Shown here: positions 585 to 13,144 of the stretch, one piece after another
Position numbering within the stretch: the stretch's first letter is position 1
How the letters are laid out: every line of letters begins with the position of its first letter
Source: Escherichia phage BF17
DNA: 64,000 nucleotides
Sequence record: MW822008.1
Reading direction: 5' to 3' (one strand)
Made by a program: the position numbers and the translations under genes
The notes under the pieces: generated by a model
What the model was told of the DNA's origin: nothing
The model's input: only the letters and a program-made list of their open reading frames with translations
Database searches by the model: none

Positions 585-604
585 CCACCAGCACAAGCTG
601 GTGG
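585..604. other. Inverted Chi pair CCACCAGC-acaa-GCTGGTGG
   Basis: CCACCAGC 585-592 and GCTGGTGG 597-604 read directly. Confidence 0.6.
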
Positions 605-729: not shown

Positions 730-920
730 GATTTTGGGCGTAGTTACCCTGGATGGATTTTGGACGTAGATATGTCTAGCCCTCCAGAAGTCTGGAAGTA
801 AAGATGGCTATCCATCTAGACGGCTAAACGGCTAGATTTCTGGATGGCTAGATGGCTAGACGTTTGGACGGCTAAACGGCTAGATGGTTACACGTCTGGA
901 AGTATAGACGGCTAAATCAA
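730..920. repeat. Iteron-like short direct repeats (GGCTA[GA]A[TC]GG x8; GTCTGGAAGTA x2; GGATTTTGGRCGTAG x2)
   Basis: direct repeats visible at 731-770 and 790-915; candidate origin or packaging region. Confidence 0.65.
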
Positions 921-1085
921 AATTTTATTTTGTTTTTCCAATAGTTCCCCTACCGCGTGGGGATAGTTTCCCCGCAGTATCTGGAGTTAGATTTTTCTGA
1001 ATCTGGAATCATTATCTTATAAACTGGGGGCAATGTCAACGACCTGGACGGATATTTTTAAAAATTTTTTCAGTACTGAATTTTG

Positions 1086-1330
1086 GGCGTAACTATGCAC
1101 CCGGTGGGCTTGAGTCTTTCTCGACTTGATGGAACTATTATACAGTACTGAAAAAATAAAGCAATACCCTGGAAGCAAAAAAGTTTTAATTAATTTGCTT
1201 GCTATCCTGGGCCGGACTATGGTACTATATTTCAGTACTGAGAAAGTGCGTTTACCTGCTAGGGTGCGGGAGTGTATCCTTTTTTTATATCTTGAATTTT
1301 GGGCGTAATTTCGCACCCTCTGGGGTTTCC
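1086..1330. promoter_or_regulatory. Promoter-like sites with conserved downstream CCCACCGGGTGCATA-type elements in both orientations
   Basis: minus-strand TATAAT-like with element at about 1093-1108; plus-strand AGGGTGCGGGAGTGTATCC 1261-1280 then T-run; minus element about 1300-1320. Confidence 0.45.
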
Positions 1331-1673
1331 GCTTTCTCGCGTCTATGTAGTAATTATACGCTTTTTCAGGATCAAGTCAATACCTAAAAACAAAATAATT
1401 GAAAATAATTTAACGCGTTTAAACGGCCCGTAAAGCCCTGGAATGATTGGAATGGTGCAAATGTATAGCTTATGTGTATTAATGCGTTAGAATGCGTCTG
1501 AGGCCGTTTTACGGGGTATGGGGATGATTTGGTGGATTGATTCAGTACTGAATAATAGTACTACTATATAGAAAGATAGTTCCCCTGGATGGTTGCAGTA
1601 CTGAATGATAGTACTGAATAATAGTTCCCCTATATAGAAAGAAAACTATTTTAAAAGTATTTGTAGAAAGTAC

Positions 1674-1701
1674 TTGCAAACTAAGTTTAACGGCGTATAA
1701 T
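1674..1701 (+). promoter_or_regulatory. sigma70 promoter (TTGCAA-16-TATAAT) with 5' stem-loop
   Basis: TTGCAA 1674-1679, TATAAT 1696-1701; hairpin AGCGGGAAcactTTCCCGCT about 1714-1733. Confidence 0.7.
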
Positions 1702-1756
1702 GTTTTACATCGAGAGCGGGAACACTTCCCGCTACATATTACGAGAGATTAAAACG

Positions 1757-2119
1757 ATGGCGACTCAAATCACTAAAATTATTGCTAACCTGGTTAACTT
1801 TCGCGACGAGATGAAAGATCTTCCGGCAGAAACGGTAAAAATTCACATTTCAGCTTATCGGGAACTTATTGCAATGTTACCGCTTAAGCGTGAACAATAC
1901 GCCGCGACCGTGATGCTTGATGCGATGATCCATAAGATGATCGCCAGTGATTTAACGATGGTTTATCAGTATATGGGCGAAAATTTCGCGGTGTATAGTA
2001 AACCAGTACCAGGAATGGAAAGTACAGAAGTATTACACGGTTTAAATTTAAAACAAGATGCATGGGATAATATGCCTCGTTTCCTGGTATGGGCTGACAG
2101 TGGCAAAATTTACGAATAA
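1757..2119 (+). CDS. hypothetical protein (120 aa)
   Basis: internal ATG 1757 of ORF 1700; track start lies in promoter -10; promoter + stem-loop upstream. Confidence 0.7.
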   Translation: MATQITKIIANLVNFRDEMKDLPAETVKIHISAYRELIAMLPLKREQYAATVMLDAMIHKMIASDLTMVYQYMGENFAVYSKPVPGMESTEVLHGLNLKQDAWDNMPRFLVWADSGKIYE

Positions 2120-2133
2120 GTTTAATAAAGTAC

Positions 2134-2161
2134 TTGCAAACTAAGTTTAAAAGCGTATAAT
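2134..2161 (+). promoter_or_regulatory. sigma70 promoter with 5' stem-loop
   Basis: TTGCAA 2134-2139, TATAAT 2156-2161, hairpin GTGGGGAAtagtTCCCCAC 2173-2191. Confidence 0.7.
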
Positions 2162-2213
2162 ACTTTACATCAGGTGGGGAATAGTTCCCCACTATAATTA
2201 AGAGATTAATTTT

Positions 2214-2447
2214 ATGAGTACTATTTTAACTGTTTCTCAATCCGTTGCACTGACTGACCTATTAAACGCTTTAAGCCGTTGCACTGAGGTTGGCTTGTTT
2301 GATGTGGTTGACGTTGCACCGGACGTTATTAATCATTTTTGTGATGCGATGGAAGAATGTAAGGAAGATGATAGCCGTATGATGGCGGTCGCCTTTGAGG
2401 AAGTACAGCCGGGTGAGATCAAAGGTTTACCAGTACTGAAAAAATAG
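2214..2447 (+). CDS. hypothetical protein (77 aa)
   Basis: ORF track; promoter + stem-loop upstream; weak AAGAG RBS. Confidence 0.7.
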   Translation: MSTILTVSQSVALTDLLNALSRCTEVGLFDVVDVAPDVINHFCDAMEECKEDDSRMMAVAFEEVQPGEIKGLPVLKK

Positions 2448-2450
2448 TAC

Positions 2451-2478
2451 TTGCAAACTAAGTTTAAAAGCGTATAAT
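2451..2478 (+). promoter_or_regulatory. sigma70 promoter with 5' stem-loop
   Basis: TTGCAA 2451-2456, TATAAT 2473-2478. Confidence 0.7.
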
Positions 2479-2529
2479 ACTTTCTATCAGGTGGTGAATA
2501 GTTCCCCACTATATAAGAGGATTAAAAAA

Positions 2530-2769
2530 ATGGCTAAATCAAAAATGTTCTTAGGTCACAAAAACAAAACTCATTGGAATGTAAGCCTTTGGATTAATAA
2601 CGATGAGTCATTGTACCGGTTGGCCCAGGACTTTATTAATGATAGCACTAATCGCAATGATGCGGCCCGTCATATGATGCTATTTTTAGAACAGACTGGA
2701 CAAGATAAAACACCGGACGGATTCAAATATAGCACTACTGCGATCCGTGCGGCGATGGTTGGAATGTAA
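2530..2769 (+). CDS. hypothetical protein (79 aa); paralog of 4570..4809
   Basis: ATG 2530 with RBS AAGAGGA; shares HKNKT(H/Q)WNVSLWINN...TPDGFKYSTTAIRAAMVGM with 4570 gene. Confidence 0.75.
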   Translation: MAKSKMFLGHKNKTHWNVSLWINNDESLYRLAQDFINDSTNRNDAARHMMLFLEQTGQDKTPDGFKYSTTAIRAAMVGM

Positions 2770-2782
2770 TAGAATTTATTTA

Positions 2783-2819
2783 AAGTACTATCATTTTTTT
2801 GCGATAGTACTTTATAATA
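2783..2819 (+). promoter_or_regulatory. Promoter with palindromic operator-like site AAGTACTATC...GATAGTACTT
   Basis: inverted repeat 2783-2792 / 2803-2812 followed by TATAAT 2814-2819. Confidence 0.55.
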
Positions 2820-2855
2820 GTGTTTTATTCATACACCAACGATAAGGGTAACAGC

Positions 2856-3122
2856 ATGAATATTAAGTATTTTGCGACGCGTGAACAAGCTCGGATCGCC
2901 GCACGCCAGGACGGGGCAACGTTTAAAGATATGGGAGCGGGATCGGCAAGTGGTGAACGTTGGGCCATTGTAAAGCGTAGTACCGCCAGATCATTACAGT
3001 ACTGGTTAGCGGCGTTAAAAAGTCCCGATAGTGTATCGCGTCGAGTGGTAGAAATAAAGCTCGACCGAAAGGGCAACCGCGTGACCGTGTACCGTACTAA
3101 AAAGATTGCAGTACTTGAATAA
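2856..3122 (+). CDS. hypothetical protein (88 aa); paralog of 15228..15623
   Basis: ATG 2856; shares FATREQARIAAR...FKDMG...RKGNRVTVY with 15228 gene. Confidence 0.75.
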   Translation: MNIKYFATREQARIAARQDGATFKDMGAGSASGERWAIVKRSTARSLQYWLAALKSPDSVSRRVVEIKLDRKGNRVTVYRTKKIAVLE

Positions 3123-3129
3123 AAAGTAC

Positions 3130-3157
3130 TTGCAAACTATGTTTAATGGCGTATAAT
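3130..3157 (+). promoter_or_regulatory. sigma70 promoter with 5' stem-loop
   Basis: TTGCAA 3130-3135, TATAAT 3152-3157, hairpin AGCGGGAAcactTCCCGCC. Confidence 0.7.
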
Positions 3158-3209
3158 GTTTTACATCGAGAGCGGGAACACTTCCCGCCTATAACCTGGA
3201 GTAATAAAA

Positions 3210-3440
3210 ATGACTAATATGTATATGACTGAAGTTAAAACCGTAAAAGATACTACCACGAATAAAACTACTTACTTACAGCGGATCTGCGGTGTATGGC
3301 AACGTATCAGCAAATCAAAGTACTTTAAATTAACATCATATGCAAACCGTTCGGATTCATTCAGTACTGAAATAAAAGGTAATAAAGTACACCAATACGG
3401 CACTTATTATTATTATAGCCTGGACGCGATTGCAGTATAA
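3210..3440 (+). CDS. hypothetical protein (76 aa)
   Basis: ORF track; RBS GGAG 3198-3201. Confidence 0.7.
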   Translation: MTNMYMTEVKTVKDTTTNKTTYLQRICGVWQRISKSKYFKLTSYANRSDSFSTEIKGNKVHQYGTYYYYSLDAIAV

Positions 3441-3470
3441 GCAGTTTACAAATCTTTACAATTGCCGGTA

Positions 3471-3550
3471 TTGACTTATTTTGTCAGTACTGGCATAATG
3501 TATTCATTGGCAGATAAGCCGTAGCCCATAGGGTGCGGGAGTGTATCTAT
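3471..3550 (+). promoter_or_regulatory. Promoter (TTGACT-17-CATAAT) plus conserved transcribed element GCCCATAGGGTGCGGGAGTGTATC
   Basis: TTGACT 3471-3476, CATAAT 3494-3499, element about 3524-3550; no ORF downstream. Confidence 0.55.
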
Positions 3551-3563
3551 AGAAAAAGTAGTT

Positions 3564-3643
3564 TATTACAGTTACAATTGTGCACCCGGTGGGTTAGCTG
3601 TTGTCATGGGGTATATTATGCCAGTACTTGATAATGCTGTCAA
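3564..3643 (-). promoter_or_regulatory. Convergent minus-strand promoter (TTGACA-17-CATAAT) plus conserved element ACCCACCGGGTGCACAA
   Basis: minus-strand -35 at 3638-3643, -10 at 3615-3620, element about 3575-3595; faces the 3471 promoter. Confidence 0.55.
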
Positions 3644-3688
3644 TACTTTTTTTACTATTCAGTACTGAAAACTATTTTTAAAAAGTAC

Positions 3689-3716
3689 TTGCAAACTATG
3701 TTTAAAGGCGTATAAT
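3689..3716 (+). promoter_or_regulatory. sigma70 promoter P1 upstream of structured leader
   Basis: TTGCAA 3689-3694, TATAAT 3711-3716. Confidence 0.65.
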
Positions 3717-3721
3717 GTTTT

Positions 3722-3806
3722 ACATCAGGACGGGGAACGAAATAAGTAACTCCCCGTTAAGTAGCCCAGGAGTAAGGCACACGAAAAACTCCCCTGATAA
3801 AATAGT
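3722..3806 (+). ncRNA. Conserved structured leader / candidate small RNA between tandem promoters (copy 1)
   Basis: about 85% identical to 14031-14114; hairpin CGGGGA...TCCCCG with compensatory change in copy 2. Confidence 0.4.
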
Positions 3807-3834
3807 TTGACAAATGTTTTTAAAAGCGTATAAT
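3807..3834 (+). promoter_or_regulatory. sigma70 promoter P2 (TTGACA-16-TATAAT)
   Basis: TTGACA 3807-3812, TATAAT 3829-3834. Confidence 0.65.
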
Positions 3835-3866
3835 ACTTACATCAACTACTGAATGAGGGTTACAAA

Positions 3867-4478
3867 ATGAAAACTATCACTACTACTACTTTCGTTATGG
3901 ATTTTTCTGAATTGAACGCAGAACAAAAAACGTCAGCTATCGAACTGGTTCGGGAACGTGAAAAAAACTTAAACGATGATTATTTTTCTGAAAGTGAAAT
4001 TGAATACTATAAAGAAACAGTACTACCGGAATATGGCATTAATGACGCTGATTTACGTTTCAGTGGCTTTTGGTCCCAGGGTGACGGTGCATCAATCAGT
4101 ACTGACCACGTTGACGCAGTGAAGTTTTTACGCAAGGTAAGAGCATTAACTAAGTATCGCTCAATCCGTCACTTGCTGAATGAAGATGATTTGGCGATGA
4201 GTGTAAAGCGTTCTCACTCCCACTACTCGCATGAAAACACTGTAAGCGGGTACATTGAATCGGCTTACACTGATTTAACCGCAAAACAAGAAACGTTAGT
4301 TAATGAGCTTGAGGAACTACTCACTGAAACTATTCGTGAATTATCCCGCAAGTTGTACCGTGATTTAGAGAATGCATATGAGGATCAATTCACTACTGAA
4401 AACATTACGGCACTGATTGAGGGTAACGAATATCAATTCAATGTTATTGATGGCGTAGTAGAATCAATCGAATATTAA
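3867..4478 (+). CDS. hypothetical acidic protein (203 aa)
   Basis: ORF track; RBS GAGGG; largest module-1 ORF after the kinase-like gene. Confidence 0.75.
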   Translation: MKTITTTTFVMDFSELNAEQKTSAIELVREREKNLNDDYFSESEIEYYKETVLPEYGINDADLRFSGFWSQGDGASISTDHVDAVKFLRKVRALTKYRSIRHLLNEDDLAMSVKRSHSHYSHENTVSGYIESAYTDLTAKQETLVNELEELLTETIRELSRKLYRDLENAYEDQFTTENITALIEGNEYQFNVIDGVVESIEY

Positions 4479-4491
4479 TTTAAAAAAGTAC

Positions 4492-4519
4492 TTGCAAACT
4501 AAGTTTAAAAGCGTATAAT
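4492..4519 (+). promoter_or_regulatory. sigma70 promoter with 5' stem-loop
   Basis: TTGCAA 4492-4497, TATAAT 4514-4519, hairpin GCGGGGAgtggTTCCCCGC. Confidence 0.7.
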
Positions 4520-4569
4520 ACTTTATATCGAGGCGGGGAGTGGTTCCCCGCTCAAACGAGGATTTAAAA

Positions 4570-4809
4570 ATGGCTAGTTCTAAAACTTACAACGGGCACA
4601 AAAACAAAACTCAATGGAATGTAAGCCTTTGGATTAATAACGGTGAGTCATTGTATCGGCTTGCACAAAGTTGTATCGCACAAAGTAGAACTAAAGATAT
4701 TGCAGCGGAATGTATGTACCGCAGATTAAAAGCCAACGGTACTACTACAACGCCGGACGGTTTTAAGTATAGCACTACTGCGATCCGTGCTGCAATGGTT
4801 GGAATGTAA
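4570..4809 (+). CDS. hypothetical protein (79 aa); paralog of 2530..2769
   Basis: ATG 4570, RBS GAGGA. Confidence 0.75.
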   Translation: MASSKTYNGHKNKTQWNVSLWINNGESLYRLAQSCIAQSRTKDIAAECMYRRLKANGTTTTPDGFKYSTTAIRAAMVGM

Positions 4810-4866
4810 TATTCAGTACTGAGATAATGGCGGGTAATAGTTCCCGCCTTTACTGAGGGTTATCTA

Positions 4867-5127
4867 ATGAGTAAAGTAATAAAGTACAATGTGTTAAGCA
4901 AATCATTGTCTATCAGTGAATGCACCGATGGTTTTTGGATGTACGATGAAACGCGTGGCATGAATTTAGCTATGCGTGCAAAAACTGCTGAGGCGGCGTA
5001 TATTCAAGCACTGGAATACTACCAGGAACGTTTAAAGGAAGTAGAAGAAGATTATAAAAGCCTCAAAGCGAAAGTAGATCATTTCGTCGGTCAATTCATC
5101 GAGGAAGACGACGACAAACAATATTGA
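4867..5127 (+). CDS. hypothetical protein (86 aa)
   Basis: ORF track; RBS GAGGG; upstream stem-loop GGCGGGtaatagttCCCGCC. Confidence 0.7.
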   Translation: MSKVIKYNVLSKSLSISECTDGFWMYDETRGMNLAMRAKTAEAAYIQALEYYQERLKEVEEDYKSLKAKVDHFVGQFIEEDDDKQY

Positions 5128-5135
5128 AAAAGTAC

Positions 5136-5163
5136 TTGCAATTAGTTTTCAGTACTGTATAAT
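5136..5163 (+). promoter_or_regulatory. sigma70 promoter with 5' stem-loop
   Basis: TTGCAA 5136-5141, TATAAT 5158-5163, hairpin GGGAGAAatggTTCTCCC. Confidence 0.7.
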
Positions 5164-5213
5164 GGTTTACATCAAAGGGAGAAATGGTTCTCCCTGGTAA
5201 TGAGGAAAATAAA

Positions 5214-5435
5214 ATGGCTAATATCACTACTCTTTCCCAACTGGAAGCACTGGTTAAATCTATGCGGGAACATGCCGACAAAATCGGCGTACAAGATCCA
5301 GCCGTTTGCTTCTGCGACGAATTGAATGATGATACCCTGGTAATAGCAGAAGTCCAGGACGTTTCTAACTATTCATCGCGTTACACTGGCGGCGTAGCAA
5401 ATAAAGGTGACTTCTGTTTATACCTTACAAAATAA
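5214..5435 (+). CDS. hypothetical protein (73 aa)
   Basis: ATG 5214, RBS GAGG 5202-5205. Confidence 0.75.
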   Translation: MANITTLSQLEALVKSMREHADKIGVQDPAVCFCDELNDDTLVIAEVQDVSNYSSRYTGGVANKGDFCLYLTK

Positions 5436-5438
5436 CAA

Positions 5439-5471
5439 CGCGGGGAGATAATAACTCCCCGTTACTTTTTC
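5439..5471 (+). terminator. Rho-independent terminator
   Basis: hairpin CGGGGAGataataaCTCCCCG followed by T-run. Confidence 0.7.
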
Positions 5472-5502
5472 AGTACTGAATCATTTAATAGACGGATCTA
5501 TG

Positions 5503-5573
5503 CACCCGGTGGGTTAGTGACTGTTTCGTCTTGATGTAGTAATTATGCCAGTACTGGATGCACTTGTCAACAA
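5503..5573 (-). promoter_or_regulatory. Minus-strand promoter (TTGACA-17-CATAAT) plus conserved ACCCACCGGGTGCATAG element
   Basis: -35 at 5568-5573, -10 at 5545-5550, element about 5503-5518; no minus-strand ORF. Confidence 0.5.
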
Positions 5574-5603
5574 CTATTTTTCAAATACTTTTTATTAAAA
5601 TAC

Positions 5604-5631
5604 TTGCAATTAGTTTTTAAACGCGTATAAT
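5604..5631 (+). promoter_or_regulatory. sigma70 promoter with 5' stem-loop
   Basis: TTGCAA 5604-5609, TATAAT 5626-5631. Confidence 0.7.
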
Positions 5632-5678
5632 GTTTTGCATAGGGGGAGCGGTTCCCCTGGTAACTAAGGAATAATAAA

Positions 5679-5915
5679 ATGCTTGAACAAATCAAATCAA
5701 CGTCTTCGAATGTAACGGGAACGGTAGCACACTTTACTAGTGATGAATCGCGGGGCGTTCCCTATTGTGCTGTACATGTAAACACTGAGGGTAACTACTG
5801 GTTTACGGTTTACGGATCATATTCATTTGGACGGCCAGGGCATCAAAAAATTCTGGATAAAGTACAACCAACGGGTAAAAATATCACTGCTGAAATGTTT
5901 TATAAAAAATCATAA
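5679..5915 (+). CDS. hypothetical protein (78 aa)
   Basis: ORF track; RBS AAGGA. Confidence 0.75.
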   Translation: MLEQIKSTSSNVTGTVAHFTSDESRGVPYCAVHVNTEGNYWFTVYGSYSFGRPGHQKILDKVQPTGKNITAEMFYKKS

Positions 5916-5920
5916 AGTAC

Positions 5921-5948
5921 TTGATAATAGTTTTTAGTACTGTATAAT
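5921..5948 (+). promoter_or_regulatory. sigma70 promoter with 5' stem-loop
   Basis: TTGATA 5921-5926, TATAAT 5943-5948, hairpin GGGGGAGCGGTTCCCCC. Confidence 0.65.
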
Positions 5949-5999
5949 ATTTTACATCGCAAGGGGGAGCGGTTCCCCCTGGTAACTAAGGATAATCAA

Positions 6000-6299
6000 A
6001 TGAAAATTGCAATCATCGCCCTGGCTTTATCTGTTTCCTCTTTCGCTGTTAATGCGTCATTAGATGTAAGTAGTGAAAAATTCATTCAGTGCACTGTTGC
6101 AATGACCGATGAAAGTACTGGCGAGATTGTTTTAAAGGATTTAGAGATCCAGCCGGAAGCATTTAAAAACGGGCCGTTCCATGAAGAAGACGAAAAAGGT
6201 AGCACGACAATTTATTACGATGCAAGTACTAAACGCGGTTCGGTCACTGTTATGGATACTGAGAAAGTAACTCATACTGGCGTTATTAATTGCCGTTGA
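6000..6299 (+). CDS. secreted/periplasmic hypothetical protein (99 aa) with N-terminal signal peptide
   Basis: MKIAIIALALSVSSFAVNA-S: hydrophobic core plus AxA-like cleavage site. Confidence 0.75.
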   Translation: MKIAIIALALSVSSFAVNASLDVSSEKFIQCTVAMTDESTGEIVLKDLEIQPEAFKNGPFHEEDEKGSTTIYYDASTKRGSVTVMDTEKVTHTGVINCR

Positions 6300-6320
6300 T
6301 ATATACTACGGGGTAACATC

Positions 6321-6551
6321 ATGACTAAGCGAATTGTTTTACTTAACGAAAGCAGTACTACACAACTACTTAACGCCGTGCATTATGATATTGAAACGAG
6401 CGTTAATCTTATCAGTACTGTAGTACTGTTGGACACTGGAAAGGTCGCCAATGATAAAGCGATTGCAGGTATACTAACGGATCTTGAGCCTGGTAGCAGT
6501 GCATCAATAACGTTAAATGGTAAAGTGTTTAACATTTTACTTACTGATTAA
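6321..6551 (+). CDS. hypothetical protein (76 aa)
   Basis: ORF track; RBS GGGG; same operon as 6000 gene. Confidence 0.65.
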   Translation: MTKRIVLLNESSTTQLLNAVHYDIETSVNLISTVVLLDTGKVANDKAIAGILTDLEPGSSASITLNGKVFNILLTD

Positions 6552-6555
6552 GTAC

Positions 6556-6586
6556 ATAGCCCACCTGGTGGGCTTTTTTGTTTTTG
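6556..6586 (+). terminator. Rho-independent terminator
   Basis: hairpin AGCCCACCtGGTGGGCT then TTTTTTG. Confidence 0.7.
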
Positions 6587-6633
6587 TAGTATCGTAGTAC
6601 TGAGATACTTTGAAAATAGTTTTAAAAAAGTAG

Positions 6634-6661
6634 TTGACATTACCGCAGAAAAGCGTAGAAT
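6634..6661 (+). promoter_or_regulatory. sigma70-like promoter (TTGACA-16-TAGAAT) with long diverged leader
   Basis: TTGACA 6634-6639, TAGAAT 6656-6661; leader 6668-6770 related to the 3722/14031 leaders. Confidence 0.6.
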
Positions 6662-6784
6662 GTATTACATCAAGACGGGGAGCACTAAGTAGACCGCCAG
6701 TAAGTCGAACGAAAAACTGGACACGTCGAGAAAACTTTGATACACTAATAAACGTAAACTAAACTTTAATTGAGGATTTATAAA

Positions 6785-7267
6785 ATGGCTAATGTAAAAT
6801 CATTCATCAAAGCACTGGTAGCAAATGAAACTAACGTCGCGGCTGAGATCCTGGCTGAACTGGATAACGATACCATGAAAGCGGTACGCAATAATTTTAA
6901 CATCGCGTACAGTACTGCGAAAGAACTACAAGCAAATAAAGCGGCAGAAATTGAAGCGGCAAAGGCGGCCCGTGAAGCAGAACTACAAGCAACAATCGAA
7001 AGTATTCAGGCGGCAGTAGTTGGATTGGATCTGGAAGTAGTTACAGAGATGGCACAAAAAGCCCTGGCGGTTAAGTATGGGGAAGACAAGCCAGAAGTAA
7101 AAGCCAAAAAATGGATTCAGGAACGCGTAGCGGTAGTACTGGACAACGGGGAAGAATATCTGATTCCGGTGCGTGGTAACTGCATTGCGGTAGTACTGGA
7201 CGCGATTAACTCCAGTGGTATGACTCGCGAGGAATGGATCGAAGCTCATCGCAAAGTTGAAGCATAA
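6785..7267 (+). CDS. hypothetical protein (160 aa), Ala/Glu-rich helical N-terminal part
   Basis: ATG 6785 with RBS GAGG 6772-6775. Confidence 0.75.
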   Translation: MANVKSFIKALVANETNVAAEILAELDNDTMKAVRNNFNIAYSTAKELQANKAAEIEAAKAAREAELQATIESIQAAVVGLDLEVVTEMAQKALAVKYGEDKPEVKAKKWIQERVAVVLDNGEEYLIPVRGNCIAVVLDAINSSGMTREEWIEAHRKVEA

Positions 7268-7286
7268 CAATTAAAGTACTGAATCA

Positions 7287-7318
7287 CTAGCCCACTTATA
7301 CAGTGGGCTTTTTTGTGT
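7287..7318 (+). terminator. Rho-independent terminator
   Basis: hairpin AGCCCACTtatacAGTGGGCT then TTTTTTG. Confidence 0.75.
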
Positions 7319-7324
7319 TTATCG

Positions 7325-7440
7325 TTTACCAGGCCACCAGCACCGCCTAGAAACGATTCTAACGCATTAAACTGATTATCTGATGCATCACCCTAGCTGG
7401 TGGCGTTAAGGTCGTTAGAATGCGATTGAGTGCGTTTAAA
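7325..7440. repeat. Large imperfect palindrome with Chi octamers on both arms and TTAGAATGCG motifs
   Basis: CCACCAGC 7334-7341 and GCTGGTGG 7396-7403; ATTCTAACGCATT / CGTTAGAATGCG inside. Confidence 0.5.
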
Positions 7441-7468
7441 GTATTTTACAAAAAGTAATAAAAAGTAC

Positions 7469-7496
7469 TTGCACGATTAAGAGATTAGCGTATAAT
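7469..7496 (+). promoter_or_regulatory. sigma70 promoter with 5' stem-loop
   Basis: TTGCAC 7469-7474, TATAAT 7491-7496, hairpin GGGGGAAacggTTCTCC. Confidence 0.7.
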
Positions 7497-7551
7497 GTTT
7501 TACATCGAGAGGGGGAAACGGTTCTCCTTCCAAATCAAAGGAATCAAAACA

Positions 7552-7779
7552 ATGGCTATTATCATTACTCGCGTATCTGGTACTACTGGCAACGAACAAG
7601 TAGTTGCAGTCATTACCAACAAGGAAGGTGCGGAATTGCAAAATGCAATGAATACCTGGGCCGTTAATGAGTTCGGTCAGTGGGCAAGTGTAGCATACAT
7701 TGAAACCTATCAAGTGCCGTCGATTAGTTTAACTGATTTGGGCGTTGAGCGTATCCTTTGCCTTGATGAATTAAATTAA
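7552..7779 (+). CDS. hypothetical protein (75 aa)
   Basis: ATG 7552, RBS AGGA 7538-7541. Confidence 0.75.
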   Translation: MAIIITRVSGTTGNEQVVAVITNKEGAELQNAMNTWAVNEFGQWASVAYIETYQVPSISLTDLGVERILCLDELN

Positions 7780-7787
7780 AAAAGTAC

Positions 7788-7815
7788 TTGCAAAGTAAAT
7801 CGAATAAAGTATAAT
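7788..7815 (+). promoter_or_regulatory. sigma70 promoter with 5' stem-loop
   Basis: TTGCAA 7788-7793, TATAAT 7810-7815, hairpin GGGGAGAAaatgGTTCTCCCC. Confidence 0.7.
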
Positions 7816-7865
7816 ACATTACATCAAGGGGAGAAAATGGTTCTCCCCACTACAAGGAAACTAAA

Positions 7866-8009
7866 ATGAAAACTTGTCAATGTGGTCAGAAATCTATTAC
7901 GGGTTTAAAGCGGGGCGTTGCTCTTTGCCAGTACCATTATAATTTACAAGTATGGGGTAAAGAATGGGCCGACCAGGTGGAAGCAGCAAAGAAAGCAAAA
8001 AGTAAGTAA
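7866..8009 (+). CDS. small Cys-containing protein (47 aa; CQCG...CQYHY), below ORF-track cutoff
   Basis: translated by hand: MKTCQCGQKSITGLKRGVALCQYHYNLQVWGKEWADQVEAAKKAKSK; RBS AAGGAA; promoter upstream. Confidence 0.6.
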   Translation: MKTCQCGQKSITGLKRGVALCQYHYNLQVWGKEWADQVEAAKKAKSK

Positions 8010-8022
8010 AAATATTATCACA

Positions 8023-8057
8023 GTACTATTGACATAGTTTGATAGTACTGGCATAAT
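8023..8057 (+). promoter_or_regulatory. Palindromic promoter cassette AGTACTAT-TGACATAGTTTG-ATAGTACT (copy 1)
   Basis: TTGACA 8029-8034, CATAAT 8052-8057; about 60 nt (8007-8070) exactly repeated at 8299-8362. Confidence 0.7.
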
Positions 8058-8088
8058 AGATTTTATCAAGACGACTAAGGAAAACAAA

Positions 8089-8301
8089 ATGGCTATCATT
8101 ACAAAAATCAAAGTAAACAAATCACTGGTTAAACTTGAACAAGTGAAAGCAGGTTATAAAGTATCGTGGTGCGGTATGTATCGGATGTTCGCAGATATTG
8201 ATGAAGCGATCAATTATTACAGCGACACGGTTAAAAACTTTGTTCGTGCTGATGTGGTTATGGCAGTGGCAGCACATAAAGCAGCGAAAGAAAGTAAGTA
8301 A
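8089..8301 (+). CDS. hypothetical protein (70 aa); paralog of 11203..11382
   Basis: ORF track; RBS AAGGAA; MAII(T/A)K start shared with 11203 gene. Confidence 0.75.
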   Translation: MAIITKIKVNKSLVKLEQVKAGYKVSWCGMYRMFADIDEAINYYSDTVKNFVRADVVMAVAAHKAAKESK

Positions 8302-8314
8302 AAATATTATCACA

Positions 8315-8349
8315 GTACTATTGACATAGTTTGATAGTACTGGCATAAT
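8315..8349 (+). promoter_or_regulatory. Palindromic promoter cassette (copy 2, exact repeat of copy 1)
   Basis: TTGACA 8321-8326, CATAAT 8344-8349. Confidence 0.7.
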
Positions 8350-8390
8350 AGATTTTATCAAGACAACATATTAATTTAAGGAATACAAAA

Positions 8391-8714
8391 ATGGCTAAAA
8401 CTATCATTAACACCGTTTCCCTGGCTGCAATCCGTGCAATCAATGTTGACGGTAAACGTTGGACTGATTCATATGGCAATACTTATCATTCTTGTCATGT
8501 AAGCGTTGAACTGGATAACGGTTTGAATGATCTGGCGGTTGAATCATTTACTTATGGCTATGAAGATGCATATCAACAAACGGCGTTAGATCTCTTAAAG
8601 GAATCAGTAGACGGGCTTAATACTGATGAAACCTCCCTTACTCGTTTGTGCAATGATCTTAATATCCCGTTGCATTGTACTGTACAGAATGTTAAACGCA
8701 AAAAAGATCTTTAA
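8391..8714 (+). CDS. hypothetical protein (107 aa); paralog of 14809..15132
   Basis: shares RWTDS(Y/H)GNTYHSC(H/Y)VS and C-terminal RKKD(L/M) with 14809 gene. Confidence 0.75.
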   Translation: MAKTIINTVSLAAIRAINVDGKRWTDSYGNTYHSCHVSVELDNGLNDLAVESFTYGYEDAYQQTALDLLKESVDGLNTDETSLTRLCNDLNIPLHCTVQNVKRKKDL

Positions 8715-8794
8715 TTAGCTTTACTTTATGCAGATACTTTGATATAGTGTCTGCATAGGGGAAAGAAATTAAATTAACTTAAGAGGATCGTATA

Positions 8795-9064
8795 ATGAAA
8801 AATATCAGTACTTTAATCGATGCAGGTACACATGTTCGGCGGTCTATGGTTGCAACCAGTACTACAAAACAAGTAGCGAGCGGTTATCTTGTATTTGTGC
8901 ACGATGGTAAACTCCTGGAACGTTCAATCAATTTTGATGTTAAAAACAATTGCCGTTTTATTATCTTTAAGCGTGAACAATATAAAATTGATTTACCAGC
9001 GAAGCCCATAAGCGGGGCGTACAACGTGCAATCATTGTTTGAGCGTCAACCTTACACCTATTAA
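8795..9064 (+). CDS. hypothetical protein (89 aa)
   Basis: ORF track; strong RBS AAGAGGA; upstream inverted repeat ATGCAGATACT...AGTGTCTGCAT. Confidence 0.7.
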   Translation: MKNISTLIDAGTHVRRSMVATSTTKQVASGYLVFVHDGKLLERSINFDVKNNCRFIIFKREQYKIDLPAKPISGAYNVQSLFERQPYTY

Positions 9065-9115
9065 TCAAAACATCGTTAGCGGTCGTTTAAGGCCGCTTAT
9101 ATTGGGGATTATACC

Positions 9116-9388
9116 ATGAACGTTAATCAAGTACTGAATGAGATCGAAAGCATCATTAAACCGATGAAGCGTACTGATGCTATGTTAACACCGGAAGAAA
9201 GCCGCCTATATGAGCGTTACAGCGTCGAACAAGTCCAGGCAATGGCTATGGCTACGCCAGCCGTTAAACCGCCTGAGAATGCGTTACAGGACGTTACAGG
9301 GGATTATATCATTAATCCAGTACTAGGGAAGATGCCGCCAATCACCGAAGAACAAAAAGACTATTTGAGTCAGTACTTAAAAGGTTAA
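9116..9388 (+). CDS. hypothetical protein (90 aa)
   Basis: ORF track; RBS GGGG. Confidence 0.65.
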   Translation: MNVNQVLNEIESIIKPMKRTDAMLTPEESRLYERYSVEQVQAMAMATPAVKPPENALQDVTGDYIINPVLGKMPPITEEQKDYLSQYLKG

Positions 9389-9393
9389 TTAAT

Positions 9394-9603
9394 ATGCTTA
9401 CTGTACAGGATAAGATCGACATCTTAAAGGTTAATATGTATGTGATTGATGCCGTACCTGGTAAAGTATTTGCATACGATGATTCTAATCGCAGTCCTTT
9501 CTATTGTAGTCATGTAGTTGGATACGTGCCGTTGGCGTATGTTATCGAAAGAGTGGTTGATGCAGCATACAATCATTTTTTAGAAAATAATACTTGCAAT
9601 TAG
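9394..9603 (+). CDS. hypothetical protein (69 aa)
   Basis: ORF track; 5 nt after previous stop. Confidence 0.6.
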   Translation: MLTVQDKIDILKVNMYVIDAVPGKVFAYDDSNRSPFYCSHVVGYVPLAYVIERVVDAAYNHFLENNTCN

Positions 9604-9621
9604 TTTTTAAACGCGTATAAT
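9594..9621 (+). promoter_or_regulatory. sigma70 promoter with 5' stem-loop
   Basis: TTGCAA 9594-9599, TATAAT 9616-9621, hairpin GGGGAGAAatgaTTCTCCCC. Confidence 0.7.
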
Positions 9622-9672
9622 GTTTTACATGAAGGGGAGAAATGATTCTCCCCACTAATTAAGGAATATGAA

Positions 9673-9819
9673 ATGAAAGCATCAAAAAAGAGTAATACCA
9701 AGAAAGCATGTTCACCTTTCGCTGGGGTATTCCCTTTACGTTTCGTTGATGAAGTGGTTTCCTACCCGCTGGGCCTTACTCCTGAGATGGTAGAAAGTTT
9801 GCGTAAATCTAAAAAATAA
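9673..9819 (+). CDS. small basic protein (48 aa), below ORF-track cutoff
   Basis: hand-translated MKASKKSNTKKACSPFAGVFPLRFVDEVVSYPLGLTPEMVESLRKSKK; RBS AAGGAA. Confidence 0.55.
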   Translation: MKASKKSNTKKACSPFAGVFPLRFVDEVVSYPLGLTPEMVESLRKSKK

Positions 9820-9823
9820 TACT

Positions 9824-9850
9824 TGCAATTAGTTTTCAGTACTGTATAAT
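9824..9850 (+). promoter_or_regulatory. sigma70 promoter with 5' stem-loop
   Basis: TTGCAA 9824-9829, TATAAT 9845-9850. Confidence 0.7.
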
Positions 9851-9900
9851 AGTTTACATGAAGGGGAGAAATGATTCTCCCCAATAACAGGAGAAACAAA

Positions 9901-10053
9901 ATGAAACAATACAACGCTCGGTTTGATGTTACTATCGGCAACGGCAAAGGTCAATTCTCTTTCAGTACTCGCCGCAGTTATACAGAAAACTTCCTGCGAA
10001 ATTGTGCACTGACCGCCGCACAAATTAAACATTACTTCCAGGCTAAAAAATGA
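9901..10053 (+). CDS. hypothetical protein (50 aa)
   Basis: ATG 9901 with RBS CAGGAG; track start 9871 lies in leader. Confidence 0.6.
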   Translation: MKQYNARFDVTIGNGKGQFSFSTRRSYTENFLRNCALTAAQIKHYFQAKK

Positions 10054-10139
10054 AATCATTAGCTTATTACAGTTCGGCGGTGATCGGTGCATTGATCGCG
10101 GCATTGTTAGTAACCTATCTATTCTTTATGGTGATTTAA
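10050..10139 (+). CDS. tiny hydrophobic single-TM peptide (29 aa)
   Basis: ATGA overlap with upstream stop; MKSLAYYSSAVIGALIAALLVTYLFFMVI. Confidence 0.35.
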   Translation: MKSLAYYSSAVIGALIAALLVTYLFFMVI

Positions 10140-10259
10140 ATGAATCCTAACGGTTTAATTTACAGTACTACTAAAACGAAAGCAGATAAAGCGAAAGTAA
10201 AGGAGTACATTAAGCAAGGCATGACGCGAAAGGCGGCAGTACTGAAAGCTAAAAAATAA
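10140..10259 (+). CDS. small basic protein (39 aa)
   Basis: ATG adjacent to previous TAA; MNPNGLIYSTTKTKADKAKVKEYIKQGMTRKAAVLKAKK. Confidence 0.35.
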   Translation: MNPNGLIYSTTKTKADKAKVKEYIKQGMTRKAAVLKAKK

Positions 10260-10267
10260 ATGAAAAA

Positions 10268-10350
10268 AGTGGTTGACTTCGGTCAGCCATTTTGCTATTA
10301 TATATTCATTGAGAGATAGCTCACTAGCCCACCGGGTGCATAAGTGTATC
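10268..10350 (+). promoter_or_regulatory. Composite module: terminator-like hairpin overlapping promoter (TTGACT-17-TATTAT) plus conserved element GCCCACCGGGTGCATAAGTGTATC
   Basis: hairpin 10271-10288 with T-run; TTGACT 10273-10278; TATTAT 10296-10301; element 10327-10350. Confidence 0.55.
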
Positions 10351-10394
10351 TATTATATAAGTATTGAGTACTGAGAACTATTTTTAAAAAGTAC

Positions 10395-10422
10395 TTGCAA
10401 ACTATCTCAATTGGCGTATAAT
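10395..10422 (+). promoter_or_regulatory. sigma70 promoter with 5' stem-loop
   Basis: TTGCAA 10395-10400, TATAAT 10417-10422. Confidence 0.7.
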
Positions 10423-10473
10423 GTTTTACATCGAGAGGGGGAACGGTTTCCCCTGGTAATAAGGAAACGAATC

Positions 10474-10815
10474 ATGACTATCTCAATTGCTCAATCTAAC
10501 TTTGAAAATGAAATCATCGCCCAGGCACTGCGTTTAAATGATGGTCGGGCCGAAATTAATTACGGTTTCAATTCAGGCGGTTGTGAAAACTATCAGTACT
10601 TTGTAACTGCTGATGGCGGTGTCCTGGGCATCAATACCGTTATTGTAAACATTCAGAAAATTAATTTCAATGATCCAGACGATAGCCAGTTTTACATTGT
10701 AGGCGTAGACGTGAACTATGAGGATGACTCACTAACTGATGATCACACTGGCGAGAAGTTAGAAAGTGCATACGGTGAAGATGATTATCAGTCCGGTCCA
10801 GAAGATTTTGAATAA
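10474..10815 (+). CDS. hypothetical protein (113 aa), acidic C-terminus
   Basis: ATG 10474 with RBS AAGGAA. Confidence 0.75.
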   Translation: MTISIAQSNFENEIIAQALRLNDGRAEINYGFNSGGCENYQYFVTADGGVLGINTVIVNIQKINFNDPDDSQFYIVGVDVNYEDDSLTDDHTGEKLESAYGEDDYQSGPEDFE

Positions 10816-10828
10816 TATTAAAAAATAG

Positions 10829-10857
10829 TTTGACAATAGATTATAGTACTGTATAAT
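10829..10857 (+). promoter_or_regulatory. sigma70 promoter (TTGACA-17-TATAAT) with 5' stem-loop
   Basis: TTGACA 10829-10834, TATAAT 10852-10857. Confidence 0.7.
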
Positions 10858-10906
10858 AAGTTACATCAAGGGGAGAATAGTTCTCCCCACTAACAGAGAA
10901 AACAAA

Positions 10907-11119
10907 ATGGCTAATATCTGCACTGTACTGAAAAATGCAAAACAAGTTTTATTTTCTGACCACGATTATTTTAATAAAGATATTACAGGCGTTCGGAATA
11001 TCAAAGATGTAAAAAGTGTTATGGGTATCTATTGCAATATGAAACGTGTTGGAACGTTCGGCGACAAAGTACTATACCAGGCAGGGGATTACAATTTTAC
11101 ACTGACTATCATTAACTAA
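10907..11119 (+). CDS. hypothetical protein (70 aa)
   Basis: ORF track; RBS GAGAAAA. Confidence 0.7.
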   Translation: MANICTVLKNAKQVLFSDHDYFNKDITGVRNIKDVKSVMGIYCNMKRVGTFGDKVLYQAGDYNFTLTIIN

Positions 11120-11132
11120 AAATATTATCACA

Positions 11133-11167
11133 GTACTATTGACATAGTTTGATAGTACTGACATAAT
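11133..11167 (+). promoter_or_regulatory. Palindromic promoter cassette (copy 3)
   Basis: TTGACA 11139-11144, CATAAT 11162-11167, flanked by AGTACTAT / ATAGTACT. Confidence 0.7.
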
Positions 11168-11202
11168 AACTTTTATCAACTACACTACTAAGGAATTAAA
11201 AA

Positions 11203-11382
11203 ATGGCTATCATCGCAAAAACTGAAATCGTTGGTCTGGATTCTATCATCATGACGTTTGAAGATCAAAAAGGTATGTATGTAGTTTCATATGGTGATTA
11301 TGTTCGGGAGTATGAAACGGTAGACGAAGCCTTTGAAAGTTATATTCGCCAGGTGAATAAAGCATACGACGACTACCGCTAA
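11203..11382 (+). CDS. hypothetical protein (59 aa); paralog of 8089..8301
   Basis: hand-translated; RBS AAGGAA. Confidence 0.6.
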   Translation: MAIIAKTEIVGLDSIIMTFEDQKGMYVVSYGDYVREYETVDEAFESYIRQVNKAYDDYR

Positions 11383-11403
11383 AATATATTACCAGTACTA
11401 TTA

Positions 11404-11437
11404 AAGTTATTGACATAGTTTGATAGTACTGTATAAT
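11404..11437 (+). promoter_or_regulatory. Palindromic promoter cassette (copy 4)
   Basis: TTGACA 11410-11415, TATAAT 11432-11437. Confidence 0.7.
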
Positions 11438-11481
11438 AAGTTTTATAAACAGTAGTTAACTTAACCTAAGAGAGAAATAAA

Positions 11482-11625
11482 ATGATCGCACTGGATTCAT
11501 TCATCGACGCAGTACTGGCAAAAACTGGCGAGGATCTGACCGCAGAACAATACGCGATGATCGAGCAATGTCAGCAAAACGGTAAATCGGTGAAAGATAC
11601 TGTTAAGATTATCCGCAAGATGTAA
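11482..11625 (+). CDS. small protein (47 aa), below ORF-track cutoff
   Basis: hand-translated MIALDSFIDAVLAKTGEDLTAEQYAMIEQCQQNGKSVKDTVKIIRKM; RBS AGAGAAA. Confidence 0.55.
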   Translation: MIALDSFIDAVLAKTGEDLTAEQYAMIEQCQQNGKSVKDTVKIIRKM

Positions 11626-11631
11626 GATTAT

Positions 11632-11665
11632 AGCCCACTGGTTAACGCTGGTGGGCTTTAATCCT
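11632..11665 (+). terminator. Terminator-like hairpin containing a Chi octamer
   Basis: AGCCCAC...GTGGGCT stem; GCTGGTGG 11647-11654; weak T-run. Confidence 0.45.
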
Positions 11666-11730
11666 TTACCCTATACAATGTCAGTACTAAACCGTTTATC
11701 TCATTAGAATGCGTTACAGGACGTTTGACA

Positions 11731-11928
11731 ATGATTAGCATGAAATCAGTACAAAAACAAATAGAAACATTATCAAAAATTAAACGTAAACAGTACTCGT
11801 TAGAATATACAATCAATGGTAACTATCATCTAATGAAAGAGAATAATTTTATCGTCATTGATGAATCATTGCAAGTTATTAGTATAGTACTGAAAGCATT
11901 AATTAATGATAGAAAAAAATTAAAATAA
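11731..11928 (+). CDS. hypothetical protein (65 aa), AT-rich codon usage
   Basis: ATG 11731 (track start is TTG 11725); weak RBS; no promoter seen. Confidence 0.4.
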   Translation: MISMKSVQKQIETLSKIKRKQYSLEYTINGNYHLMKENNFIVIDESLQVISIVLKALINDRKKLK

Positions 11929-11932
11929 TCTA

Positions 11933-12013
11933 TTGACAATATCCTCCAGTACTGGCATAATACTTACATCAAGACGAGAACGTCACTAACCCATAGGGTG
12001 CACAAATGTAACT
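11933..12013 (+). promoter_or_regulatory. Promoter (TTGACA-17-CATAAT) plus conserved element ACCCATAGGGTGCACAAATGTAAC
   Basis: TTGACA 11933-11938, CATAAT 11956-11961, element 11988-12013. Confidence 0.55.
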
Positions 12014-12020
12014 GTATAAT

Positions 12021-12517: not shown

Positions 12518-12523
12518 AAAGTA

Positions 12524-13138: not shown

Positions 13139-13144
13139 AAACTA

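Follow-up and report, generated by a model that had tools for sequence, protein, structure and literature searches.

The left end of the genome of Escherichia phage BF17 (MW822008.1) raises the question of what is made from two sigma-70 promoters that face each other at positions 3471 to 3643. The stretch analyzed (64,000 nucleotides; here, the window) holds a copy of a 12-nt box downstream of each of them, and the initial annotation had proposed that these copies belong either to a family of short noncoding RNAs or to a conserved DNA site that recruits transcription. Each box was found to be part of a larger "box unit" (promoter, leader, box and a hairpin that overlaps the box), which recurs in the terminal repeat of the genome and is conserved in related Rak2-like jumbo phages, and whose pattern of variation favors an element that is read as RNA over one that is read as DNA. 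The box unit is probably a new early phage RNA, and such units are probably transcribed. Both promoters lie where they had been placed, and both have an extended -10. They face each other, across 115 bp rather than about 110 bp, and the interval, described as free of open reading frames (ORFs), holds a single one, a 32-codon GTG frame. The parts of the two units are as follows.

3471-3499, plus strand: sigma-70 promoter of the plus unit (TTGACT at 3471-3476, 17-nt spacer, TGgCATAAT with its hexamer at 3494-3499; 10/12 matches, extended -10)
3508-3521, plus strand: 5′ hairpin of the plus unit, UGGC-AGAUAA-GCCG, of a type common to phages RaK2, CBB and GAP32
3525-3536, plus strand: box of the plus unit, CCCATAGGGTGC (invariant box CCCAUAGGGUGC)
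3524-3534, plus strand: alternative mini-hairpin of the plus unit, G-CCC-AUA-GGG-U
3531-3548, plus strand: hairpin 2 of the plus unit, GGGUG C-N5-U-G UAUCU, overlapping the box
3643-3615, minus strand: sigma-70 promoter of the minus unit (TTGACA at 3643-3638, 17-nt spacer, TGgCATAAT with its hexamer at 3620-3615; 11/12 matches, extended -10)
3593-3582, minus strand: box of the minus unit, CCCACCGGGTGC (given also as CCCACCGGGUGC)
3593-3570, minus strand: box and hairpin 2 of the minus unit, with hairpin 2 reaching to 3570

The predicted transcripts start near 3506 (plus) and near 3608 (minus). The spacer of the plus-unit promoter contains CAGTACTG, and in phages 121Q and A4 the plus-unit 5′ hairpin is swapped as a block for AUUG-AAACGAA-CAAU. 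The minus-unit leader CAUGACAACAGCUAA is unstructured here and appears as a GAC-GAGAAA-GUC hairpin in phage EJP2.

Bases 3000-5000 share 93-98% identity with the Asteriusvirus jumbo coliphages SP27, PBECO4, 121Q and G17, and by its sequence the window is the left end of an Asteriusvirus genome of the 121Q/PBECO4 group. Its base 1 corresponds to base 1 of the vB_Ec-M-J, CRJP21, fEgEco12 and E9.1 records, which start at the left end of a direct terminal repeat. The repeat is annotated at 1-21525 in vB_Ec-M-J and was measured at 20,668 bp in Sharanji (PMC11895373). Base-1 alignment and repeat lengths together place the window at the start of the virion DNA, of which it covers the first 64 kb, with the terminal repeat as roughly the first 21 kb. 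The first 20 kb is a region of early type, dense in near-consensus sigma-70 promoters, behind each of which come a 5′ leader hairpin and a small ORF.

Within this setting the box is far too frequent for chance: CCCAYMGGGTGC with at most one mismatch matched 10 times in 64 kb versus 0.14 expected, and none of 100 shuffles reached 10. Copies start at 1097(-), 1313(-), 3525(+), 3582(-), 5502(-), 10328(+), 11990(+), 13929(+), 17202(+) and 19164(+) and follow the pattern CCCA-YM-GGGTGC. The initial annotation had therefore seen a genuine family in both orientations, although the site that it listed at 1261 is a decayed copy: it is matched by the covariance model (R1, built from 50 copies) at 1260-1281 on the plus strand but has lost CCCA. 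Scanning the 64 kb with R1 and with filters off returned the ten copies and this decayed one, and nothing further. As all copies lie inside the terminal repeat of ~20.7-21.5 kb and none in the remaining 43 kb, the family in the window is confined to the repeat. All ten copies follow a co-oriented -35/-10 pair (9-11 of 12 matches; TG before the -10 in seven) whose -10 ends 21-28 nt before the box, and the predicted start of transcription falls at a conserved CAT. The alternative proposal, a DNA site that recruits transcription, is not needed, since every unit has its own canonical sigma-70 promoter.

A search of related phages, which had been suggested as a check on the element, showed it to be conserved in all its giant relatives among enterobacterial phages. 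Many copies were recovered by pattern scans from RaK2, GAP32, CBB, 121Q and uncultured ~350-kb contigs, and the R1 model gave 141 matches (110 distinct) in 336 kb of such loci. Among the 110 distinct copies, box positions C7, C8, G14, G15 and T16 did not change at all, and C9 (C in 107), A10 (109), G13 (109), G17 (109) and C18 (102) hardly did, so that variation is limited to the two central positions (CA in 46, TA in 35, others in 29). Coupling to a promoter is equally general: 97% of 109 distinct copies have a promoter with at least 9/12 matches 19-30 nt upstream, compared to 6.8% of random positions in the same loci. At the locus itself, 3445-3552 (from ~25 nt upstream of the -35 through hairpin 2) is ~84% identical in phages of the Klebsiella RaK2 group, and in GAP32, CBB and Munch identity is 83-86% over the stretch that begins at the -10 and ends with hairpin 2. 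Nucleotide homology between genera ends directly after hairpin 2. Between genera, the proteins encoded near the units share only 25-55% identity, compared to ~84% for the unit, which indicates that the noncoding unit is under stronger constraint than its neighbors. Single-copy matches in viral contigs outside the jumbo phages were mostly chance matches within coding sequence. One further box unit, complete with promoter and a leader hairpin CGC-UCAAG-GCG, was seen at L057:4302-4333 (IMG/VR contig 2663762836_000005, 32 kb, from an isolate-genome project); it belongs to a jumbo-phage fragment or else is the sole family member outside the Rak2-like phages.

The RNA motif of the box unit appears not to have been described so far. 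Rfam 15 gave zero matches at gathering score in the 64 kb, and permissive scans of 900-20000, 3440-3870 and 5420-5580 gave none on box units, the best chance matches scoring 14-18 bits versus the 36-75 needed. ARAGORN found no tRNA or transfer-messenger RNA genes in the window, and the element is not described in the literature searched (Asteriusvirus, RaK2, phAPEC6 and jumbo-phage noncoding RNA). In 185,579 bacterial and archaeal species genomes, CCCAYAGGGTGC-N5-TGTATC, sought as the full consensus only, had 12 scattered chance matches and none in Enterobacteriaceae. A mimic derived from the host, such as a CRISPR-repeat-like RNA anti-CRISPR or a copy of a host RNA, was rejected on the absence of the full-consensus motif from host genomes.

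Several features of the variation point to RNA, with the caveat on all statistics that follow that the copies are related to one another. A 5′ hairpin with a purine- or A-rich loop ends 3-6 nt before the box in 41/50 copies (mean score of 4.22 versus 2.01 ± 0.29 in shuffles) and is built from at least 14 stem sequences (UGGC/GCCG, UGAG/CUCA, GACG/CGUC, AGCA/UGCU, AGACA/UGUCU, ACCAC/GUGGU and others), whereas the other 9/50 have an unstructured A/C-rich leader in its place. Subtypes of this hairpin are each kept across genera, and at orthologous sites it is exchanged as a block while the box is retained. The GGGUG of the box can pair with a YRYCY tract 8 nt downstream to form hairpin 2 (95% paired, versus 42-65% for slid partners), and changes in the 3′ strand are almost exclusively pair-preserving transitions between G-C and G.U or U-A and U.G (42:10 versus 152:123 in other variable columns; P = 6 × 10−4). 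Because G.U pairs work on one strand only, such strand-specific variation favors the RNA reading. The box can also fold on itself into a mini-hairpin, R-CCC/GGG-U with a 3-nt loop (98.6% paired), in which all three changes at C9 were to U, one of them with a matching G-to-A change that gives a U-A double change; RNAalifold, run on a 74-column alignment, returned the CCC/GGG mini-hairpin only. The two folds are mutually exclusive, and the variation data choose neither. Long-range pairing between leader and tail looked suggestive in some copies and was dropped (matched, -3.56 kcal/mol; mismatched, -3.32 kcal/mol; permutation P = 0.12).

How the units end, and in which direction they are read, bears on what their product could be. 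Six units in the window are co-oriented with genes and four are opposite. The units other than the convergent pair at 3471-3643 are as follows.

1085-1164, minus strand: box unit (promoter 1164-1137, box 1108-1097) facing the left genome end, followed by a leftward promoter at 1039-1011
1240-1287, plus strand: decayed box unit without CCCA, plus partner of a second convergent pair (R1 match 1260-1281)
1301-1380, minus strand: box unit (promoter 1380-1353, box 1324-1313, variant CCCAGAGGGUGC), minus partner of the second convergent pair
5432-5570, minus strand: antisense box unit (promoter 5570-5542, start near 5535, box 5513-5502), followed by CAGUACUG and then a terminator
10266-10351, plus strand: sense box unit with its -35 inside the terminator hairpin 10266-10293 and box at 10328-10339, followed by CAGTACTG and a promoter at 10395-10422
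11933-12013, plus strand: sense box unit with 5′ hairpin GACG-AGAA-CGUC and box at 11990-12001, followed by a promoter at 12049-12076
13872-13952, plus strand: sense box unit with a terminator-embedded -35, an unstructured A/C-rich leader and box at 13929-13940; a Chi site follows at 13960-13967
17140-17225, plus strand: sense box unit with box at 17202-17213, a paralogue of the 10266 unit (86% identity over 189 nt)
19114-19187, plus strand: sense box unit with box at 19164-19175; a Chi site follows at 19222-19229 and the next promoter at 19255-19283

In the decayed unit, GGGTGCGGGAGTGTATCC and a T7 run are retained, and the arrangement of GGGUGCGGGAGUGUAUCC followed by U7 is terminator-like. 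Sense units in the window run into an AU-rich tract, usually CAGTACTG, and then the ordinary promoter of the next gene; the six genes 3′ of them are unrelated to one another, and regulation in cis of a single gene family was rejected for that reason. About one third of units are antisense to their flanking genes, and antisense units (5570-5432, those of RaK2 and that of one uncultured relative) meet the bidirectional terminator of the neighboring gene 90-110 nt after their start. The unit at 5570-5432 ends at the terminator 5462-5440 of the upstream plus-strand gene, giving a predicted RNA of about 100 nt. The units behave as autonomous cassettes placed in intergenic gaps in either direction, and the ending of antisense units at terminators leads us to prefer an autonomous RNA product over a role in antitermination or as a gene leader. 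Short noncoding RNAs, as first proposed, are thus in keeping with the RNA-type variation, but shortness follows from anatomy for the antisense units only, as the sense units run on. At 10266-10301, 13872-13907 and 17140-17175, a terminator hairpin (AAAGGGATTGACTCCGGTCAGTCCCTTT) holds the -35 of the next promoter, with its T-run in the spacer, and this compact terminator-promoter junction is conserved in RaK2, CBB and GAP32. With the -35 inside the hairpin, upstream transcription would stop where the unit starts, giving the RNA a defined 5′ end.

The convergent arrangement that drew attention to the locus is not special to it. Two convergent pairs are present in the window (3506-3612 and 1240-1345), and others were found in CBB, GAP32, 121Q and at least 9 uncultured contigs. 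Between the 3′ ends of paired R1 matches, most pairs have a gap of 17 nt and others one of 28 or 35 nt; the two pairs in the window have unrelated spacer sequences and the same 17-nt gap. As their arms are similar, a convergent pair amounts to an inverted repeat of ~100 nt. Read-through RNA of 3506-3612 is predicted to form a long imperfect hairpin from either strand (-38.5 and -28.7 kcal/mol; z = -3.9 and -4.3), as is that of the second pair (-39.3 and -26.3 kcal/mol; z = -3.9 and -3.0), and the predicted primary transcripts of the pair are complementary over about 70 nt. Candidate roles for the pairs are mutual termination by collision, processing by RNase III, or a function at the level of DNA.

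The reading we favor, at a little under an even chance, is that the units yield short RNAs that are abundant right after DNA entry and that a trans-acting factor, probably a protein, recognizes them by the invariant box. In the terminal repeat of Rak2-like jumbo phages, each unit would form a self-contained module for immediate-early transcription, with a near-consensus promoter at which host sigma-70 RNA polymerase would initiate. The first ~50 nt of RNA would open with a 5′ stem-loop (purine- or A-rich loop) and a short linker, whose last three bases are UAG, UAA or UGA in 71% of copies, and continue through the invariant box CCCA-YM-GGGUGC to a pyrimidine-purine tract able to pair with GGGUG. 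Within it the box could fold in two exclusive ways, as the R-CCC/GGG-U hairpin with its 3-nt loop or as the 5′ strand of a 5-bp G.U-rich hairpin. The product would be the short RNA itself, with the box as a sequence-specific site for the factor. Antisense units would stop at the terminator of their neighbor and give RNAs of about 100 nt, and sense units would continue into the next gene, possibly with trimming within the AU-rich tract 3′ of hairpin 2. About ten very strong promoters (twenty per virion genome), active in the first minutes, would supply abundant RNA to bind, titrate or recruit the factor, and the variable 5′ hairpin might stabilize the 5′ end or add subtype specificity. Carried further, this would make the box units a new multicopy class of immediate-early phage RNA that acts through a protein and is made within seconds of entry from the first-injected repeat, as a decoy or as a handle on polymerase, a prospect that we rate as unlikely. 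A decoy could neutralize a conserved enterobacterial factor (a defense nuclease, an RNA chaperone or an RNase), and a handle could reprogram the host RNA polymerase.

Several observations weigh against this favored reading. Expression of the units is inferred from sequence for the whole phage group, and single units are not unusually stable as RNA (z = -1.2 and +0.6). When the copies were aligned for covariation, as the initial annotation had suggested, the 5′ hairpin provided varied stems, but hairpin 2, with its invariant 5′ strand, can show no double-sided covariation. No terminator separates sense units from the next promoter, which means that the RNA there may be a leader only. Nothing in the window is complementary to the box except the partner copies. 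A Pfam search of ten ORFs of the repeat that are conserved across genera found a ParE-like domain and a DksA/TraR zinc finger only, and no conserved RNA-binding protein. Least explained of all is the fixed gap within convergent pairs, for which a simple small-RNA model does not account. The two domains lie in the small early ORFs 15686-15940 (ParE-like toxin domain; E = 6 × 10−11) and 12260-12517 (DksA/TraR C4 zinc finger; E = 1.6 × 10−10), and the ParE-like protein is 39-67% identical across Rak2-like genera.

The box could instead be a leader signal that acts in cis, by pausing polymerase near the promoter, by loading an elongation or antitermination factor, or by directing the processing or stability of early mRNA, an explanation to which we give a minor share of belief. 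Its position at +15 to +33 of the predicted transcript in every copy is a narrow range, and several units start directly after a terminator hairpin that holds their own -35, so that only freshly initiated polymerases would read the box, in an early region rich in terminators. The layout of hairpin and linear box recalls the boxB and boxA of lambda nut, which, like HK022 put, is a short RNA element just 3′ of early promoters that combines a purine-loop stem-loop with a linear box; the 5′ loops of box units (AGAUAA, GAGAAA, GCGAAA, AGAACAA) are purine- or A-rich but 4-8 nt long, compared with the GNRA-like purine pentaloop of boxB, and 9/50 copies are without a hairpin. Like the RfaH ops site (GGCGGTAGNNTG), the box is a 12-nt invariant, early-transcribed element in which a tiny hairpin is possible, and its G14 G15-N8-U24 (93%) G25 (57%) would fit GG-N8-YG, the consensus of the elemental pause, with the mini-hairpin immediately 5′ of it. 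That match is low in information, however, and the box does not resemble ops in sequence. The boxA consensus is CGCUCUUA / UGCUCUUUAACAA; neither this nor put or ops sequence occurs in the 110-copy consensus YURR-CCCAYAGGGUGC, hairpin and box are not ordered as in lambda, and there are at least 10 copies compared to two. A tblastn search with E. coli RfaH, a query validated by 87% matches to Salmonella RfaH, found no RfaH/NusG paralogue in any Rak2-like phage at E ≤ 1. The downstream genes share no common family, and, above all, the one third of units that oppose genes and terminate at once, within ~100 nt, would be pointless as antiterminators or gene leaders. A site on double-stranded DNA that a phage regulator binds, either a middle-promoter activator box in the position of a MotA box or a repressor or roadblock for early shutoff, is quite unlikely in our view. 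Ten invariant positions do resemble a protein site, the fixed 17-nt gap of the pairs could reflect DNA geometry, and CCCAYA lies exactly 17 nt before a TAT... hexamer, which would place the box at -35 to -24 of a possible second promoter. But TANNNT is kept in that -10 register in only about one third of copies, for which reason the middle-promoter version was rejected, and the box never occurs without an upstream co-oriented promoter. Nor does a DNA site predict strand-specific, G.U-compatible transitions or a covarying 5′ hairpin.

A service to replication or recombination of the terminal repeat, by primer RNAs or R-loops at the AT-rich tract (compare T4 oriF/oriG and the T7 primary origin) or by stimulation of exchange between repeats, is very unlikely, even though it would suit promoters without an ORF, the AT-rich sequence 3′ of hairpin 2, the limitation of units to the terminal repeat, their two orientations and convergent pairs, the three leftward promoters within 1.4 kb of the physical end and the strong enrichment of Chi in the repeat. 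At least 10 origins in 20 kb would be unlike known phage origins, no iterons or DnaA boxes were found beside the units, and T4 and T7 origins are not known to have an invariant box or a covarying 5′ hairpin. We consider it highly improbable that the units are selfish or neutral promoter-terminator cassettes, spread by recombination in the manner of the PeSL (promoter-early stem-loop) elements of T4-like phages, with the box as a functionless hitchhiking remnant. Such an origin would fit an early region built of repeated promoter-hairpin modules, leaders swapped as blocks between orthologous sites, and units in both orientations; decay would then be expected, as in the 1260-1281 copy, whereas the box has stayed invariant across 110 distinct copies, in genera with proteins of 25-55% identity, and distinct leader subtypes are each kept across genera. 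Barely credible, finally, is a ribosome-binding site with a mini-ORF (GGGUG, 5 nt, NUG UAU CUA ...) that sequesters tRNA in the manner of lambda bar. AUG, GUG or UUG stands 5 nt after GGGUG in 52% of copies, several frames read Met-Tyr-Leu-stop, and CUA is a rare codon in E. coli. The remaining 48% have no start codon there, frame lengths range from 3 to >20 codons, and the conserved UAUCU follows from hairpin 2, a fold in which the putative ribosome-binding site and start codon would be buried.

Among described systems, the nearest to the box units is PeSL (PMC2839356, PMC4122927). Both are repeated terminator/early sigma-70 promoter modules set among small ORFans of a plastic early region, with parts swapped between related genomes, and a near-consensus early sigma-70 promoter is present in ten of ten units in the window. 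A stem-loop at or upstream of the promoter, as in PeSLs, occurs in the 10266, 13872 and 17140 units and in many copies of RaK2, CBB and GAP32, but the 3471/3643 pair and the units at 5570 and 11933 lack one. At its 3′ end a PeSL has the Shine-Dalgarno sequence and start codon of a downstream gene, whereas box units have no ORF, carry an invariant 12-nt box and hairpins, and occur in both orientations and in convergent pairs. Lambda OOP is comparable in that a strong orphan promoter, facing the 3′ end of a gene, yields an RNA that stops at a terminator after about 80-100 nt; box units differ as a multicopy family with a common invariant box, mostly sense, whose overlap with the neighboring gene is limited to the terminator. 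The defining sequences or contexts of nut, put, ops and OOP were tested and do not recur in the box units; these systems are functional analogies only. The terminal repeat of PA5oct, a distant Pseudomonas jumbo phage that uses the host polymerase, encodes the ORF-less and abundantly expressed ncRNA001 and ncRNA002 (PMC7318152). These are 236-451 nt long and have no sequence in common with the box unit, and the box was not found in the PA5oct terminal repeat or in its noncoding RNAs. By kind, then, the box unit is a phage early promoter cassette or small RNA. Of the defined promoter and terminator expected of a trans-acting base-pairing small RNA, antisense units (e.g., 5570-5432) have both, and sense units have no terminator.

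Other identities were tried and rejected. An intrinsic terminator does not suit a hairpin 2 that is weak and G.U-rich and followed by a U tract in few copies (1261+, L069:8966, L040:3188). A Xer dif site consists of an 11-bp XerC arm, a 6-8-bp center and a conserved XerD arm, TTATGTTAAAT; the resemblance of the units to it (GGTGC...ATAA...TGTAT) needs a 2-nt deletion, and the position of the XerD arm is not conserved. Type III toxin-antitoxin RNA of the ToxI kind consists of repeats in tandem beside a toxin gene, but the box units lie scattered at intervals of 0.2-5 kb and have a promoter each. Loops of CsrA type (GGA) or resembling Shine-Dalgarno sequence (GGAGG) occur in about half of copies and in 1/10 in the window, and a MazF ACA in the loop of the mini-hairpin in 42% of copies only.

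Several other features of the terminal repeat were observed alongside the units. Ordinary early mRNAs start with ACAUCRAG, followed by a G-rich hairpin (GGGGGA-loop-UCCCC) directly before the ribosome-binding site; this leader occurs ~20 times (e.g., 1711-1735, 2171-2195, 4529-4553 and 10432-10456) and looks like a conserved 5′ stabilizer, distinct from the box units. Positions 1-1700 are noncoding (the first annotated gene of vB_Ec-M-J begins at 1760) and hold an array of twelve 8-bp units (CTAGACGG) at 806-914, ten CAGTACTG sites and three leftward promoters toward the DNA end (1039-1011, 1164-1137 and 1380-1353). Recognition of the genome end, packaging or replication may involve this region. 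In the window the E. coli Chi sequence GCTGGTGG has 11 copies versus 0.42 expected, 10 of these within the terminal repeat: 585-592(-), 597-604(+), 7334(-), 7396(+), then 11647, 12692, 13960, 16308, 17715 and 19222 (all +), and 60094(-). Two of the sites form a back-to-back pair 0.6 kb from the left end, two others lie directly 3′ of box units, and CCACCAGC is found within box-unit promoter spacers of other Rak2-like phages. The enrichment suggests that genome ends are shielded from RecBCD and/or that Chi stimulates recombination between the repeats.

The palindrome CAGTACTG occurs 63 times in the whole window versus 0.49 expected (e.g., at 340, 380, 530, 556, 1071, 1143, 3485, 3660, 5471 and 5549), and also beyond the terminal repeat at 36-63 kb. 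It is placed in promoter spacers beside the -10 and 12-35 nt 3′ of most box units; in promoters of the "AAAAAGTACTTGCA" class it takes the form AGTACT and shares bases with the -35. It resembles an operator for a DNA-binding regulator of the phage. Next to the convergent pair, a second orphan promoter (3689-3716) would give a predicted ~80-nt RNA (3722-3800) with a closed two-hairpin fold (-22.3 kcal/mol; z = -3.0), and a third promoter (3807-3834) precedes an ORF at 3867. The 3689-3834 segment is duplicated at about 13994-14142 (repeat 14060-14160, 86%) and is 84-90% identical in the unrelated rV5-like coliphages A73, W70, muut, outra and EmilieFrey. It is possibly a second, horizontally shared noncoding RNA.

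The Rak2-like jumbo phages (121Q, PBECO4, RaK2, GAP32 and CBB) are candidates for phage therapy with a barely charted early program. In these phages the box unit is the most conserved noncoding sequence of the first-entering DNA, present in at least 10 copies per repeat and conserved beyond the surrounding proteins. With 110 distinct copies and a covariance model, the family is sufficiently defined for submission as a new RNA motif. Were it a leader signal only, it would still be a new element, placed close to the promoter, for the regulation of E. coli RNA polymerase. If the units do produce abundant early RNA that acts through a protein partner, they would represent a new device for host takeover or antidefense, as well as a ready-made, compact and very strong expression module.

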